DNA of 64,000 nt from NCBI GenBank assembly GCA_030537495.1, contig JAUNMH010000004.1, positions 28,509 to 92,508 of the forward strand, in the 5' to 3' direction. The DNA comes from Clostridia bacterium (GTDB taxonomy: Bacteria > Bacillota > Clostridia > Peptostreptococcales > Anaerovoracaceae). How positions within the stretch are numbered: position 1 is the stretch's first letter; the number at the start of each line of letters is the position of its first letter. The notes beneath the pieces were generated by a model. It was not told the DNA's origin and ran no database searches. It saw only the letters and a list, made by a program, of their open reading frames with translations. This document shows, piece after piece, positions 5,955 to 57,862 of this stretch. The translations under genes were made by a program, and so were the position numbers.

Positions 5955-6123
5955 GCAAATTCCCCTCTTTCCATAGTCGCAAATTCTAATCGTGTCTCAT
6001 TATGAAAAATTATATCATTTTTTGGTCTAGATAACAACTCCCTCTGTACACCAAGTGGGTTTTGATTTATAATTTAAAAGGTTATATTTTTGTGACAAAA
6101 TTAATTACAGTGGAGGTGTTAAA

Positions 6124-7515
6124 GTGAAGATTTTTGATAACCGAGTGCAAAAGATAAAGTATGAAGTGCTTAGAGAACTGGCCCGTCATACCTGGAACGG
6201 TGAAGACGCTTTTACTGCTTTTAATGCTATTGCCAGCAGTATTATAAAGAAGGGCGAACCGCCTATGAGATGCTGCATTTACAAGGATAGAGCAATTATT
6301 GCAGATAGAATGAGAGTAGGTCTGGGCAAATGTCTCGACAGCAAGGGGATTATTCAGGTAGTAACTATTGCTTGCGATGAATGCCCTCAGTCCGGACACA
6401 GCGTAACCGACATGTGCAGAGGCTGTATAGCAAAGAGCTGTAAGGAGAATTGCCCTGTAGATGCCATTTTTATTGACGAAAAGAAAAAAGCACATATTGA
6501 TAAAGAAAAGTGTATAGAATGCGGTAAATGCGCAGAAATGTGCCAGTACAACGCAATTACAAACCTCAGAAGACCTTGTGAAAAGGCCTGCCCTACAAAT
6601 GCGGTTTCTGCCGATGAAGAAGGTGCAGCTTCTATTGATAGAGAAAAATGCATAGCTTGCGGAGAATGCGTATGGAAGTGCCCATTTGGTGCCATTCAGG
6701 ACATTTCTTCCATAGTAGATGTGGTTAACGAGCTGAGAGATGAAAATAATAAGGTTTACGCAATTATTGCGCCTTCCATAGTGACTCAGTTCAGCCAGGC
6801 AAGATTCGCCCAGGTAATAACGGGCATCAAGGAATTAGGTTTTGTTGATGTAGTTGAGGCTGCCATCGGAGCTGACATTGCGGCGAGAGAAGATGCCGAG
6901 GAACTAGCCGAAAAGGGATTCCTGACAAGTTCATGTTGCTCAGCCTTTGTTGAGTACATCAATGTATACTTTCCTGAACTTAAGGACAAAGTTTCCACAG
7001 CACCAAGCCCAATGGCAATTACTGGTAAACTAATTAGGGAAGAACATCCAGATGCAAAGGTAGTCTTCATCGGACCTTGTATTTCCAAGAAGTACGAAGT
7101 TTACAAGGAGGGTGTCAGAGAATACGTTGACTACGTTATTACCTTTGAAGAACTTCAGGCTATGTTCGACGCAAGAGATATCGACCTTGCATCTCTTGAG
7201 ATGACTGATATTCAGGGCGGTTCTTTCTACGGAAGAGGCTTCCCTATTTCCGGTGGCGTAACTAAGGCCGTAGAGGAGGTAATTAAGGAACTGGATCTTG
7301 GCATTGAGTTCAAGCCAATTGTTTGCGATGGCATAAAAGAGTGCAAAGTTGCTCTTACTAAAGCAAAAATCGGCAAGCTGGATGCTAATTTCATAGAAGG
7401 TATGGCCTGCAAGGGTGGCTGCATCTGCGGAAACGGTACACTTATTAATAAGAAAGCTGCCGCTAAGGTCGTAGACAAGTACTCGAATAACGCAGAAAAG
7501 AAAACAATTATATAA
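6124..7515 (+). CDS. Monomeric [FeFe]-hydrogenase (group B-like) with N-terminal ferredoxin-type [4Fe-4S] clusters
   Basis: Several CxxCxxCxxxC motifs. H-cluster motifs TSSCCSAF, GPCISKKYE and EGMACKGGCICG. Confidence 0.88.
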   Translation: MKIFDNRVQKIKYEVLRELARHTWNGEDAFTAFNAIASSIIKKGEPPMRCCIYKDRAIIADRMRVGLGKCLDSKGIIQVVTIACDECPQSGHSVTDMCRGCIAKSCKENCPVDAIFIDEKKKAHIDKEKCIECGKCAEMCQYNAITNLRRPCEKACPTNAVSADEEGAASIDREKCIACGECVWKCPFGAIQDISSIVDVVNELRDENNKVYAIIAPSIVTQFSQARFAQVITGIKELGFVDVVEAAIGADIAAREDAEELAEKGFLTSSCCSAFVEYINVYFPELKDKVSTAPSPMAITGKLIREEHPDAKVVFIGPCISKKYEVYKEGVREYVDYVITFEELQAMFDARDIDLASLEMTDIQGGSFYGRGFPISGGVTKAVEEVIKELDLGIEFKPIVCDGIKECKVALTKAKIGKLDANFIEGMACKGGCICGNGTLINKKAAAKVVDKYSNNAEKKTII

Positions 7516-12385: not shown

Positions 12386-13942
12386 TTAGAAAGACATATC
12401 TAAGAAAACAGATGTTCCATCTGCAAGTACCTTATATCCCTTAAGGTCACTTGTGTATGCAGTATATGACAATTCTTCAACTAATGGTAAAATGTTTACA
12501 TTCTTGTACATCATTAGCTGTAATTCGCCTACGATTTTAGATCTCTTTTCAGGATCCGGTTCTGAAGCAACCTTATCTCTTAATGCTTCGAACTCTGGCG
12601 TTATAGTTGGGTTGTTTGTCTTATCATAGAAGAATGTGTTAAATAAAAGCATAGGTTCAGCCCACTGTAAGGCTTCTATACCAGTGTCATAATTGTTTGA
12701 AGAAATCTTTTCGTAGATATAGTTCCAGTCAAGAGTTTCGATATTAAGCTTGAATCCAACCTTCTTTAACTGGTCAGCCATTTTCTGAATCATGTCTGTT
12801 GCGCTATCCCATGAGTAGAATGTGAACTCTAACTTCTTTCCATCTTTTTCAAGATATCCGTCACCATCAGTATCTTTCCAACCTGATTCTGCTAACAATT
12901 TCTTAGCCTGGTCTACGTCATTGGTTAAGTTTTCTGTGAACCACTTTTCAGCGTCTTCGCTGGAGCACTGAACCTTGCTGATAACCAATGAGTTTGCTGG
13001 AGCAAGCATGCCATCAGAAGTTTCAGCTATTGCTTTTCTGTCAATGGCAAGTGCTAATGCCTTTCTTACATTGATGTCCTGGAAGATGCCTTTGTCAGTA
13101 TTTAATTCAAAGTAATCAATTGAAGGGTATGACGTATCAACGATTTCGATTCCATCAACGTCCTTAAGTTCCTGATACATGTCTCCAGAAAGACTATTTA
13201 AGAAATCAAAATTACCACTCTTGAATTCCTCGGTCTCAGTGAATTCTTCTACATTAAATTTAAGATCCACGTTTTTGATCTTCATTACTCCGTGGTTTTC
13301 AGCAAGCGGATTGTTGCAGCTCCATCCCTCGTTTGCAACCAACTTTACTTCGGAACCGGAAACGTAGTCGTCAATAGCATATGGTCCATACGGATGTGAT
13401 TTCCACATTAATTCATCCTTTGACATTTTGTCTAATTCATCCTTATCGATGACTACAAGGAAACCACTTGTCAGATAATACTCTAGTTCTGATCTGTACT
13501 GGCTTAAGTGCATTGTAACAGTTCTTCCGTCAACATCCATGCTCTTGATGTTCATATAACCACTGTTATATGGGCTGACTTTCTGACCGTGCTTAATCGA
13601 TGCAACAACGTCTTCTGGTTCAACCTGCTCTCCTGTTGAATATTTCATCCCTTCAGGAACATCGAAGGTTGCAGTCTTTCCGTCCTTACTTACCTTCCAA
13701 TTTGTACACACGTAGTCTACAATCTTACCTTCATCTGGATCCCACTGGAATAAAGGTGCTGCTACCATGCCTGTGAAATTAGCTGTGCTGTCTAACTGAT
13801 AAGCGTCAATTCCGTACCATTCACTGTCTGTTCCGACAAAAGTGTCCTTCGCACTCTTTTCGCCATCGTCGCCACCGCCGCAGGCAGTCATAGTAAATAC
13901 CATCGCGAAGATTAGGCCTAATGCTAACAATTTCTTTTTCAT
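12386..13942 (-). CDS. oppA: Peptide ABC transporter substrate-binding lipoprotein (family 5), system 1
   Basis: Lipobox MTACGG. PYGPYAI, VRKALALAIDR and AKKLLAESGW motifs. Confidence 0.92.
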   Translation of the reverse strand: MKKKLLALGLIFAMVFTMTACGGGDDGEKSAKDTFVGTDSEWYGIDAYQLDSTANFTGMVAAPLFQWDPDEGKIVDYVCTNWKVSKDGKTATFDVPEGMKYSTGEQVEPEDVVASIKHGQKVSPYNSGYMNIKSMDVDGRTVTMHLSQYRSELEYYLTSGFLVVIDKDELDKMSKDELMWKSHPYGPYAIDDYVSGSEVKLVANEGWSCNNPLAENHGVMKIKNVDLKFNVEEFTETEEFKSGNFDFLNSLSGDMYQELKDVDGIEIVDTSYPSIDYFELNTDKGIFQDINVRKALALAIDRKAIAETSDGMLAPANSLVISKVQCSSEDAEKWFTENLTNDVDQAKKLLAESGWKDTDGDGYLEKDGKKLEFTFYSWDSATDMIQKMADQLKKVGFKLNIETLDWNYIYEKISSNNYDTGIEALQWAEPMLLFNTFFYDKTNNPTITPEFEALRDKVASEPDPEKRSKIVGELQLMMYKNVNILPLVEELSYTAYTSDLKGYKVLADGTSVFLDMSF

Positions 13943-16810: not shown

Positions 16811-17757
16811 TAATTATCACCACCACTCAAAGATAATCTAATCCTTGGATCAAGAATTCCCATAATAATATCACTAAGTAGGTTACAGATAACTGTTAAT
16901 ATAGTGATAAATAGCAAAACCGCCTGCACAACTGGCATGTCCTGAACAATAATAGAGTTCAGGAGTAGATTTCCCATTCCTGGTAATCCAAATATTTTTT
17001 CAATAACAACGGCTCCTGAAATCAGCCATGGAATTGACATAAATACTAAAGTAGTTATTAGGATAAGCGCGTTACGTAGCACATGCTTAACCATTACGTT
17101 TTTCTTCGATACACCCTTTGCATAAGCTGTAGTAACATATTTTTCATTCATTACGTCCAAAACTTCACTTCGAGTAATACGAAGAGTCGCTCCCATGCCG
17201 CCCAAAACCGTTGTTGCGACTGGTAAAATAAAGTGTGCCGGCGTCGAATATCCGCTTATCGGTAGTACTCTCAAATCTACGGCAAAGAAAATTATAAACA
17301 AAGCTCCCAGCCAAAATGAAGGAATTGCTGTTAAAAGAAGTGAAAAGTTTACAGTAAATCTGTCAAAAATCTTATCCTTCTTCATGGCACACAATAATCC
17401 CAAAGGGATTGCTAGAACAAGTTCCCAAAACATTGCCCATCCACATAACTTTAAGCTATATGGAATTCTAGCCATCATAAGGTCAGTTACCTGACTCTTA
17501 TATCTTACTGAGTTTCCGAAATCCCCATGTAAAACCTTGTTTGACCAGTCAAAATACTGAACCATAAGAGGTCTGTCGTACCCTAGTTCATGAGCTAATT
17601 CAGCCTTTCTCTCAGCAGTAACCTTACGGTCAACGACGATGTCGATAGGATCTCCCGGCATCATGTACATTAGGCAGAAGGTCAAGAAAGAAACAACTAT
17701 AACCAATAACACGCCTAATAAAATTTTCTTAATTACATAATCTTTAATAGTAATCAC
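16810..17757 (-). CDS. oppB: Oligopeptide ABC permease (OppB), system 1
   Basis: MPGDP, HGDFGNS, YVTTAYAKG and GAVVIEKIFGLPGMG. Confidence 0.93.
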   Translation of the reverse strand: MITIKDYVIKKILLGVLLVIVVSFLTFCLMYMMPGDPIDIVVDRKVTAERKAELAHELGYDRPLMVQYFDWSNKVLHGDFGNSVRYKSQVTDLMMARIPYSLKLCGWAMFWELVLAIPLGLLCAMKKDKIFDRFTVNFSLLLTAIPSFWLGALFIIFFAVDLRVLPISGYSTPAHFILPVATTVLGGMGATLRITRSEVLDVMNEKYVTTAYAKGVSKKNVMVKHVLRNALILITTLVFMSIPWLISGAVVIEKIFGLPGMGNLLLNSIIVQDMPVVQAVLLFITILTVICNLLSDIIMGILDPRIRLSLSGGDN

Positions 17758-55603: not shown

Positions 55604-55632
55604 ATTATATACTCTTTTTATCCGAAAGTAAA
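55604..55632 (-). promoter_or_regulatory. Probable sigma70 promoter of tig, overlapping the CYTH 3' end
   Basis: TTTACT-17-TATAAT. Confidence 0.55.
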
Positions 55633-56237
55633 GCTAAACCTCGCTTGAATTTGCTTGTATTCTCGGGATTTAGGCCATATTTTTCCGCAATTTCGTTTCC
55701 AAGGGCGGTCATATCCTCCTCGTCTCCCGAATAAAGTTCCAATTCCATCTCGCAAATAGGTGTCTCTCCACCTGCAGCTCTCACAAAGCCCCTGTCTGCT
55801 GACAACACGCAAATTGATTTTCCCGTATCCAGCCTAACCTGCTTTCTCGTGAATTCTACCGTCATCAAGTCATGCAACTCCTCATCTCCCACAAGACTCC
55901 CCAGTTCTCCGCCGACTTCGTCCTGGTTGAATATGGCAATGGTCGGAGTCTTTGCTTCTTCATCATCAAGGGTTATATTGAGTTCCTGCCTCTTATGCAT
56001 CCCCTCTGATGAGGTTCCTGCCCATTTTAGAGTTGCAATATATTCATTCCCCTCCTGCCTAATTCTAAACGCAAAACCTGCTTTTCTCAGTTTTTGATCT
56101 TTCGTATCATAAAAAACAGCCTTCATCGGAATCTTCTCTTCCGTATTCTCATCCTTATAACGCCTTACTTTTTCATCATTAAAAATCTCTTCTGCCACGG
56201 CCCACTCAGCCATAGTGTACTTTAATTCTATTTCCAT
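55605..56237 (-). CDS. CYTH-domain (triphosphate tunnel) protein
   Basis: MEIELKY (ExExK), FRIR and CEMELEL motifs. Confidence 0.92.
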   Translation of the reverse strand: MEIELKYTMAEWAVAEEIFNDEKVRRYKDENTEEKIPMKAVFYDTKDQKLRKAGFAFRIRQEGNEYIATLKWAGTSSEGMHKRQELNITLDDEEAKTPTIAIFNQDEVGGELGSLVGDEELHDLMTVEFTRKQVRLDTGKSICVLSADRGFVRAAGGETPICEMELELYSGDEEDMTALGNEIAEKYGLNPENTSKFKRGLALLSDKKSI

Positions 56238-56265
56238 AAATCTCAGTCTCCTTTATGCTTTCGGT

Positions 56266-56294
56266 ATTTTAGCACAAACCCCCAGCGCAATCAA
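56266..56294 (-). promoter_or_regulatory. sigma70 promoter of the CYTH gene, with -35 inside the arm of a GC-rich hairpin
   Basis: TTGATT-17-TGcTAAAAT. Confidence 0.6.
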
Positions 56295-56351
56295 GTGCAA
56301 CTGCGCGCCCCGCGCCTTGCCTGGCGCGTCCGGCTTGCACGCCACCGGGGG
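56279..56351. repeat. GC-rich multi-stem palindrome (REP-like)
   Basis: CCCCC..GTGCAA..CGCGCC-ttgcct-GGCGCG..TTGCAC..GGGGG. Confidence 0.7.
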
Positions 56352-56395
56352 TGTGGCTATGCTCTGCGCCCGATGTACGTGAAAAATGCCAAAAG

Positions 56396-56703
56396 CGGCC
56401 GGGCAAATGCCTGATATCACAATTTATTAAGAAAAGTACCGTGAAACATTTTTGTTTCACGCCCCCTGTGGCAAGGAATCATGAATACGGGCATGTTCAC
56501 TGGAATTTCAAGTCTTTTAACTGATCAAGCATTTAGAACCTAGCTAGGATTTCTCTATATTGCCTCGCTCACCCGGCCGGATTCGGCCAAATTGCTGCTT
56601 GGCGGGCAGTTTTCCATTACATTACAGTAAAAACTAGGTATCTGATAGATGTAGCACCGGTACAAATTTCAAAAATATTCAAAATCGGGCATTTGCCCGG
56701 CCG
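56396..56703. repeat. 20-bp inverted repeat (19/20) bounding a 308-bp segment
   Basis: CGGCCGGGCAAATGCCTGAT (56396-56415) versus ATCGGGCATTTGCCCGGCCG (56684-56703). Confidence 0.85.
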
Positions 56704-56750
56704 TATTAGAAATAAACTTCGAATCGCGGGCGCGGCCATTGAGCGGATTG

Positions 56751-57146
56751 AGAGTCTCGGGCCATTGTGCCTATTTTTCAAAAAAAGGTGCGAAAATTTT
56801 ACGTGAATTTTAAAAAAAATGGAATCGGGTGCAAGTTAGTTTTACCTAACTACCGGTTTATCGAGTCAAGGTATTGAGTTCCATTACATTGTTGTAATTT
56901 TAATCCATTTATTCTAATAACTGTATGGGTTTTCCGACCGAATCCAAGGCCTTCCGACCAGCAAACAAGGCTAGTCATGCCTAACCTTGCACCCCTTCAC
57001 TCAAATTTCAGGAATCATGTCAAAATCCCGCACCTGATTGCTCAAAAAAATCAAATCGCGTAACTTTTTTGCACCCGAATAGGCAACCGCCATAAATCAT
57101 GCCAAATTTGTCACGGTACGGCCAATTTGAGGAATATGGTGCAAAA
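56751..57146. repeat. Degenerate 41-bp repeat array in two inverted arms
   Basis: GCACC at 56989, 57030 and 57071 (period 41). GGTGC at 56787 and 56828 (period 41). Shared internal CAA and AATCATG-like boxes. Confidence 0.75.
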
Positions 57147-57173
57147 GTCTCAGAACCACCACAAAAAACCAAA

Positions 57174-57194
57174 CGGAGTCGCTCCGCGACTCCG
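57174..57194 (-). terminator. Terminator after DUF3842 / the Ni-lar operon
   Basis: CGGAGTCGC-GGA-GCGACTCCG followed by TTTGGTTTTTT. Confidence 0.85.
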
Positions 57195-57240
57195 CACAAA
57201 TTACATATGGCTTTCGTATATCTTTCATGTATCAAAGGAT

Positions 57241-57672
57241 TTATTTGTCAGCTGCGATTTCCACCATCTTTGCAATGGCATCGTCAATGAGTTCAGTGAT
57301 ATTTTGAACGTTTACTCCTGCTACCAGGTTGTCGCATCTGTTCATAGGCAGCAAGATGCGCTCCGCCCTGCTACGCGCAATGGCTAGAGCCATTCTCTCA
57401 GTTACCTCACCTAGCAAGGAATCAGCAATTACAATTCCCAGTGGTCCAATGATTATGTCAGCTCTACGGCACGCCACAACAACAGGGTTTTCTCCTGTTG
57501 CAACATCGTCTGCGCCGCCTTTGAGCATAGCGGCCGTAGCAGTTGCATTAGTTCCTACTGCTAGAATTTCCGCGTCAGGAAATTGCTTGCGCGCAGCCTC
57601 CACTAACTGTCTGCCAAGTCTACCGCCTTGTCCATCTATAACCAAAATTGTCATTTTATCTTCACATCTCAT
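57241..57672 (-). CDS. DUF3842-family protein (Rossmann-like)
   Basis: ILVIDGQGGRLG, AVGTNATATAAMLKGGAD, ATGENP and LLGEVT motifs. Start is 57672 (GAGGTGG RBS) or 57654. Confidence 0.85.
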   Translation of the reverse strand: MRCEDKMTILVIDGQGGRLGRQLVEAARKQFPDAEILAVGTNATATAAMLKGGADDVATGENPVVVACRRADIIIGPLGIVIADSLLGEVTERMALAIARSRAERILLPMNRCDNLVAGVNVQNITELIDDAIAKMVEIAADK

Positions 57673-57707
57673 ACTCCACCTCATATTTTCACCACCAAGG
57701 TTGTCCG

Positions 57708-57862
57708 GTGCCCAGGAATTTCCAGTTCTGCAGCGGATTATCTCTGCCTCAGGGATTTCGCAGAGCTTAGGATTTCCAGCTGCGTCCAGGGATTTCTCCA
57801 TATCCGGGAATTTCTAACTATGCAAAGGATTTCGCGCTGTGCCCAGGGTCCTCCAGTGCTGT
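57708..57862. repeat. Eight spaced copies of an (A/G)GG(A)ATTTC-like core with 8-11-nt variable spacers
   Basis: Cores end at 57722, 57742, 57759, 57776, 57796, 57814, 57833 and 57853. Confidence 0.8.

Follow-up and report, generated by a model that had tools for sequence, protein, structure and literature searches.

A phased 41-bp array in a gene-free gap of a Clostridia genome belongs to a dispersed, species-restricted family of repeats with MITE-like features

Within the 64,000-nucleotide stretch of DNA analysed here (the window), a CYTH-domain gene and a DUF3842 gene are separated by 1003 bp (56238-57240) that hold no credible open reading frames and in which gene callers predict nothing (Table 1). 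No tRNA or tmRNA genes were found within the window. A BLAST comparison of the gap with its own genome (37 contigs, 1.92 Mb, 99.86% complete) found it to consist mostly of dispersed repeat, and its contents can be resolved into a 3' relic of dapB, one copy of a repeat family designated A and one copy of a second family designated B. The intrinsic terminator of the operon that ends with the DUF3842 gene has a stem of 10 pairs, seven of them GC, followed by TTGGTTTTTT.

Table 1. Features of the gap and its borders in window coordinates, with the positions of two dispersed repeat families elsewhere in the genome
Feature	Position	Strand	Basis or remark
CYTH-domain gene	55605-56237	minus	borders gap; tig, clpP, clpX next
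dapB relic, last ~27 codons and stop codon	56269-56346	minus	tblastn with congener DapB
Family A copy, ~375 bp	56366-56739		nine genomic copies (nhmmer)
Family B, whole copy	about 56750-57151	plus	nhmmer, model of six copies
Left-arm 22-nt site L1	56787-56808	minus	motif scans; minus strand reads ATTCACGTAAAATTTTCGCACC
Left-arm core L2 (GGTGC) and hairpin GTTAG-N6-CTAAC (56835-56850)	56828-56850	minus	L1-L2 spacing 41 bp in 6/6 copies
Variable AT-rich centre with hairpin TTACA-N4-TGTAA (56884-56897)	56851-56969		six-copy alignment
Right hairpin GCTAG-N6-CTAAC (56970-56985) and unit 1, core R2 (GCACC) at 56989	56970-57029	plus	
22-nt site R1a, AATCATGTCAAAATCCCGCACC	57013-57034	plus	exact pattern match; GCACC at 57030 opens unit 2
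22-nt site R1b, AATCGCGTAACTTTTTTGCACC	57054-57075	plus	exact pattern match; GCACC at 57071 opens unit 3
Degenerate fourth site R0' (AAATCATGCCAAATTTGTCAC)	57094-57114	plus	another 41-bp step on
Terminal inverted core R0 (GGTGCAAAAGTCTC)	57138-57151	minus	alignment columns 430-441; mirrors left terminus
Intrinsic terminator of lar/cbi/DUF3842 operon	57173-57195	minus	outside repeat; terminator scan
DUF3842 gene	57241-57801	minus	other gap border; preceded by cbiO, cbiQ, cbiMN, larC
Other family A copies	C8:67139; C13:10315 and 10513; C20:28071; C25:3739 and 15325; C29:51002; C32:157032; C33:11069		
~420-bp family	C18:1040-1462, 5980-6348, 12711-13133 and 16976-17390; C37:6283-6700; C11:21585-21909		

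The dapB relic spans the first ~110 bp of the gap, and what can still be made out of the gene is its final 27 codons with the stop codon. It lies at the syntenic position of dapB in congeners and on the same strand, and aligns as GGVQAGRARQG--AGRAVALDCAGGLC against GAVQAAHWLKGKPAGIYNPLDCISGLC (13/27 identities, E 2e-4 in a small tblastn search of 56238-56420). The gene order in the three closest congeners is cbiO-DUF3842-(0-1 gene)-dapB-CYTH-tig, and dapB is found immediately upstream of the CYTH gene in every congener examined, more distant ones included. Searches with six congener DapB proteins (tblastn) detected no other copy anywhere in the 99.86%-complete genome, which suggests the loss of de novo diaminopimelate/lysine synthesis. 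Because congener synteny is conserved and the genome lacks dapB, the gap is a deletion scar of this gene filled with repeats, and the distinctive trait of the locus is the loss of dapB with A and B in its place. An earlier note on this DNA had placed the gap at a junction between core genes and a Ni/lar cassette; the closest congeners keep the same gene order around dapB, so the Ni/lar genes are not an inserted cassette here and the gap is not the border of a Ni/lar island.

Two further observations were made in this region. On the minus strand, the dapB relic contains a promoter-like sequence with an extended TG, TTGATT-17-TAAAAT (56266-56294), which is just upstream of the CYTH-tig genes and may now drive them. 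The closest congener (G004, L014:2085-2957) has a 290-aa open reading frame between DUF3842 and dapB, of which the window's genome encodes up to four paralogues (C37:44743-45516 at 52% identity, C1:121715-122512, and on C25 and C32).

The array to which the earlier note had drawn attention lies within the family B copy. Its three units (starting at 56989, 57030 and 57071) are invariant in 15 of 41 columns (1-5, 14-16, 25-28, 31, 34 and 38), all of which had been listed correctly, and 41 is the best period within the gap. At this period none of 500 dinucleotide-preserving shuffles reached 15 invariant columns (mean 6.95, sd 1.2), so that the periodicity holds against shuffled sequence; with a free choice of period from 20 to 80, 18 of 500 shuffles equalled the observed best fraction of invariant columns. 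Tandem Repeats Finder did not report the 41-bp array, the units having diverged too far. The mirror units proposed for the minus strand were recovered as GGTGC cores at 56787-56791 and 56828-56832, 41 bp apart. The left and right arms are indeed inverted with respect to each other, with 32 matches in 50 positions where 33 had been counted. Also present are the 9-bp inverted pair formed by GGTGCAAAA (57138-57146) and TTTTGCACC (57067-57075) and the TTCCATTACATT pair at 56612 and 56879, which is 84% identical over 19 nt. The 40-bp relative placed at 56949 lacks the GCACC core and falls in the poorly conserved centre and a hairpin, and is not a unit.

Searches with the six-copy model place the window copy at C1:85244-85664 (window 56736-57156, E 2.6e-114) and detect five other full copies with E values of 1e-97 to 1e-108. 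Together with one partial copy these are distributed over five contigs, and all are intergenic. This makes the array part of a repeat family that is dispersed and species-restricted. Where the earlier note had offered a multi-site platform or a decayed repeat family, the repeat family and the transposon-end or foldback-like architecture stand, and the existence of six full copies and one partial copy leaves no place for a platform confined to this locus. Family B is ~400-430 bp long and non-coding, with no open reading frame conserved among its copies, which are 63-76% identical to the window copy.

The window copy is built, in order, of the terminal sequence GAGAGTCTC-GGGCC, a left arm, a hairpin, a variable centre, a second hairpin, a right arm and the terminal core R0. 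The repeated element of the arms is a 22-nt site of the form AATCRYGT-N9-GCACC. Sites and termini are the conserved parts of the six-copy alignment, with column conservation of 0.85-0.93, compared with 0.2-0.6 for the centre and most spacers. L1 falls within the best-conserved block (columns 51-70, identity 0.93), and a block reading ATAAATCATGCCAAATCTG at R0' is conserved at 0.93 as well. The spacer sequences between sites differ from copy to copy. Both hairpins appear in the six-copy alignment as GTTAG-N6-CTAAC, with a conserved stem and a loop that varies among copies. The centre, ~120 nt long, is the least conserved part of the element (column identity 0.17-0.75, with several indels), and two copies are not alignable there. 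The termini of other copies read GAGACTTGCGCC... and ...GGTGCAAGAGTC, and in several copies GAGACTTGCRCC at the left end and GGYGCAAGTCTC at the right end form a terminal inverted repeat.

The arms are unequal: the left has two inward-facing sites, and the right has three good sites and one degenerate one. In both arms, the outermost core has the opposite orientation to the inner sites. The constancy of the left-arm spacing across copies (Table 1) extends to the right arm, in which the R2-R1a-R1b spacing is 41/41 in five of the six copies. The exception, the copy on C20, carries an 11-nt duplication that is the sole change of arm length in the family, and the number of units is identical in all six copies. 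Forty-one base pairs correspond to about four turns of the helix, which places the sites on the same face of the DNA. We consider this cross-copy conservation to be much stronger evidence for the array than the shuffle statistics of a single copy.

In its own genome the 22-nt site is found solely within B copies. With one mismatch permitted, the pattern gives 18 matches there, 0-1 per genome in 25 congeners and no more than two in any of 400 genomes from 160 genera of the order, and reversed-pattern controls give 0-1 matches. BLAST detected no B copies among 40 relatives and no similarity to B in 72,556 plasmids or 50,697 phage records, and among metagenome contigs a two-site pattern matched a contig of the same species and otherwise gave only chance hits. 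The species itself is found in gut and manure metagenomes of several studies. Contigs that span the gap in eight metagenome runs are collinear with the window, from which they differ by 1-11 substitutions. The same 1003-bp gap stands in all 8 places listed among 22 contigs encoding a CYTH protein identical to the window's, these being the contigs covered, with 57 index blocks listing the protein. Two further B copies are likewise present in other strains, and no empty site or insertion polymorphism was found at the three B loci across strains that are ~99.5% identical. Family B is thus species-restricted and fixed in the strains examined: it is absent from all congeners, yet it occupies the three tested loci in every strain, and the comparison at these loci gives no sign of recent movement.

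Some local irregularities were observed around individual copies. The C19 copy shows 12 transitions in 400 bp, compared with 2 changes in 955 bp downstream (L005). In three other metagenome runs the strains are missing 37 bp immediately beyond the right end of this copy (L005:1707-1745, equivalent to G000 C19:7028-7064), and these strains also have different sequence upstream of L005 position 1016. At C15:236277-236340, a ~48-nt duplicate of the left flank and left terminus of the C8:67765 copy abuts a family-C element, which suggests that a B terminus was once the target of an insertion or the site of a rearrangement.

In a scan that covered all but three of the flanking open reading frames, the genes beside B copies encode NUDIX, ParE, DUF815 ATPase, TPR, pilin, prepilin peptidase and Xre-type HTH proteins. 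The orientation of B relative to its neighbours is inconsistent. Since these neighbours share no common theme or orientation, a regulon or operator was rejected. The copies lie at unrelated intergenic sites. A CRISPR array was also rejected: the units form two inverted arms with a period of only 41 bp, and the "spacers" of different copies are homologous.

The other repeat in the gap, family A, has copies detected at nhmmer E values of 1e-58 to 1e-104, all of them between open reading frames. Its terminal inverted repeats are ~90 nt long (CGCGCCCGAT... / ...ATCGCGGGCGCG), and its interior contains a hairpin, CGTGAAACA-N4-TGTTTCACG, which in the window lies at 56440-56461. Four of the six B copies lie less than 300 bp from an A copy, with the short arm of B always toward A. 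The earlier note had taken the sequence at 56654 for a further copy of the array. This is the right arm of the A element, and its likeness to B comes down to a 31-nt local match that 2 of 1000 shuffles equalled; the profiles of the two families do not match each other, and a kinship of A and B is unproven. In every A copy the hairpin stems correspond to the two halves of the Firmicute parS palindrome (TGTTTCAC|GTGAAACA) swapped in order, with variable loops; this could be a coincidence or could indicate a link to ParB.

The genome contains several further non-coding dispersed repeat families of 330-420 bp with terminal inverted repeats. A third MITE-like family, unrelated to the others, is ~330 bp long and has ~12 copies (C5:28243-28623, C5:61112-61492, C15:32350-32679, C37:20070-20395 and ~8 more). 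Its terminal inverted repeats read TTCTATCA..TGTGGCACATT..CAGTACCAAAA, and its interior is strongly conserved (TTGTAT..TTTCTATGCAAGAATTGTCCCTTT..ATGTGGGTAAA); this conserved core might be an RNA. Another dispersed family, of ~420 bp, is represented by 7 copies, and a single contig carries four of these in a stretch of 17 kb (Table 1). Multi-copy sequences of ~1 kb, considered as possible IS elements, proved instead to be paralogous surface protein and lipoprotein genes. Clustering of different small bacterial repeats has a precedent in the BOX, RUP and SPRITE elements of pneumococci (PMC3049150).

We infer that family B spread by transposition, given its size and lack of coding sequence, the inversion of both its arms and its termini, the scatter of its copies between genes, the fact that all relatives lack it and the presence of other MITE-like families beside it. 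The reading to which we give moderate confidence is that B is a MITE-like foldback element whose arms would have been multi-site binding arrays for a transposase or recombinase acting in trans. Bacterial MITEs are 50-800 bp long, non-coding, intergenic and multi-copy, with terminal inverted repeats and no transposase of their own (PMC11602168, PMC3049150). Family B fits this working definition save for the target-site duplication and the parent element (PMC11602168, PMC3049150): its length and lack of coding sequence fall within these bounds, its arms and termini provide inverted repeats beyond the 10-15 bp taken as the minimum, and its copies are multiple, dispersed and intergenic. Like RUP, Correia/NEMIS, Nezha and MITEAba12, it is small and AT-rich, with a strongly base-paired predicted fold and the restriction to a species or genus that is often seen in such elements (PMC11602168, PMC3049150). 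It differs from them in its arms, which consist of ~90-170 bp of strictly phased 22-nt sub-repeats rather than a simple inverted repeat of 15-40 bp, and in the age of its copies, which show no presence/absence variation among strains.

The two missing attributes were searched for directly. No consistent target-site duplication was found at any offset for lengths of 3 to 9, with at most two of the six copies sharing a 3-mer, and the AGTCTC pair that borders the window copy belongs to the terminal repeat. No autonomous partner or parent IS with matching ends was found: the 22-nt site flanks no gene in the 99.9%-complete assembly, and in ~425 related genomes it occurs at most twice per genome. 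No rve-type (PF00665) transposase is present at B sites, and the sole match to this domain in the genome is the orfAB of the single IS3-family element, which has unrelated ends. This element (C32:439-1604, orfA and an orfB with the rve domain) lies near a contig start. The genome encodes six tyrosine recombinases, none of which is linked to the 22-nt motif.

Other known systems share single aspects of this organisation. The BOX elements of Streptococcus pneumoniae (boxA-boxB(n)-boxC) are modular, with a tandem internal unit of ~45 nt and no transposase gene, and cluster with other repeat families (PMC3049150) as B does with A. However, the number of boxB units varies by locus and strain, whereas unit number and spacing in B are constant save for the one duplication; the units of B share only about a third of their columns, and there is no sequence similarity to BOX. 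Several transposase-binding sites of ~20 nt per end, inverted and in unequal numbers, are known from the TnsB sites of Tn7, the L1-L3 and R1-R3 sites of Mu, IS21, Tn552/Tn402, and eukaryotic foldback or sub-terminal-repeat transposons. Family B resembles these in its inverted and unequal sets of sites (two as against three to four). Unlike these ends, it has no cognate transposase, its outermost cores are inverted, its regular 41-bp spacing is peculiar to it, and 5'-TG...CA-3' termini are not clearly defined. The unequal arms fit a picture of multi-site transposon ends, and the inverted outermost cores do not. The phased sites are read most simply as multiple cis sites of a mobilising enzyme. 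Under the foldback-element reading they would be sites to which a transposase or recombinase provided in trans bound cooperatively; this enzyme would have spread B after the species split from the sampled relatives and would since have been lost from the genome; the copies would now be immobile relics, at most co-transcribed with their neighbours.

That sites and spacing are so strongly conserved in old copies could just as well reflect selection for a host function, which is the main rival to the foldback-element reading. The six arrays would then be selected platforms for a host DNA-binding protein of a nucleoid-organising, silencing or partition type, with the 41-bp phase allowing cooperative dimer loading on one face of the helix. 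The uneven conservation would permit this, as sites and spacing were kept when spacers and centre diverged almost to randomness, and the fixation of B in all strains examined and the lack of both a target-site duplication and a transposase also speak for it. We nevertheless consider it unlikely, given that the 22-nt motif is missing from the 25 congeners and the 400 genomes of the order, so that a new invention in one species would be needed, and given that the copies lie among functionally unrelated neighbours, one of them within the pilin/prepilin-peptidase operon; conserved cis sites would also be expected in descendants of diverged active master elements. Neither parS nor another known site occurs in B: the 16-bp palindrome TGTTNCACGTGAAACA is found in the genome only at C9:82622 (exact) and C9:80835 (one mismatch). 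With this and the unrelated neighbourhoods, the centromere-like site and the silencer that the earlier note had entertained find no support for this element. A wider proposal, in which the six arrays and possibly the nine A elements would be working platforms on whose 22-nt sites a lineage-specific DNA-binding protein loads cooperatively to organise, silence or tether these chromosomal regions, appears improbable to us as well, although a platform role under selection would explain intact sites and spacing amid decayed intervening sequence.

It is similarly improbable that B acts as RNA, either as a structured non-coding RNA family or as a co-transcribed stem-loop of the ERIC/BOX/Correia kind that alters transcript stability or termination. 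The plus strand folds at -105.6 kcal/mol (z -4.05, compared with -1.99 for the minus strand), the hairpin stems are constant where their loops vary, and the copy in the pilus operon lies between two co-oriented genes. A good fold is, however, expected of any inverted repeat, and the RNAalifold covariation term of +1.23 gives no net support, as the pairs are mostly invariant positions of the inverted repeat. Rfam with permissive filters gave no match at E up to 1, and no promoter or terminator conserved across B copies was found; the orientation to neighbours is inconsistent. Three runs labelled RNA-Seq have the library source GENOMIC, and their coverage is low and equally even over genes and gap, as it would be for DNA. 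Far less credible is an origin of the arrays as relics of iteron-type origins or att sites of integrated plasmids or phages, with the 22-nt sites serving as initiator or integrase arm sites on either side of an AT-rich unwinding region. Iteron origins do have direct, helix-phased sites of 17-22 nt beside an AT-rich segment, and inverted sets of 22-nt sites around an AT-rich centre resemble them. Yet none of the B copies has a rep, par or integrase gene next to it, there are no initiator genes or DnaA boxes and no plasmid or phage relatives, the GC-skew trend does not turn at the locus, and six origins in a 1.9-Mb chromosome are implausible. There is next to no chance that the periodicity is fortuitous or a local, decayed tandem duplication, possibly at an island border. 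The silence of Tandem Repeats Finder and the free-period shuffles would allow it, but units and spacing recur in six independent copies, a cross-copy conservation that refutes this explanation, and the synteny kept across the gap in congeners leaves no island border.

In conclusion, the odd gene-free gap of 1 kb is explained as the scar of a dapB loss that holds two interspersed repeats. Family B is a newly recognised repeat family whose general kind is known, sharply restricted to one species of little-studied gut and manure bacterium, for which it could be a marker. Its unusual trait is an exact 41-bp phase kept in copies that are otherwise 25-37% diverged. If there is no binding protein, B would be an unremarkable leftover from an earlier burst of transposition in a small genome with several such families. 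If the arrays are instead platforms, selection would act on their sites and spacing, and they would not be dead transposon relics. Should a binding protein exist, family B would offer a compact natural case of cooperative binding that depends on helical phase.
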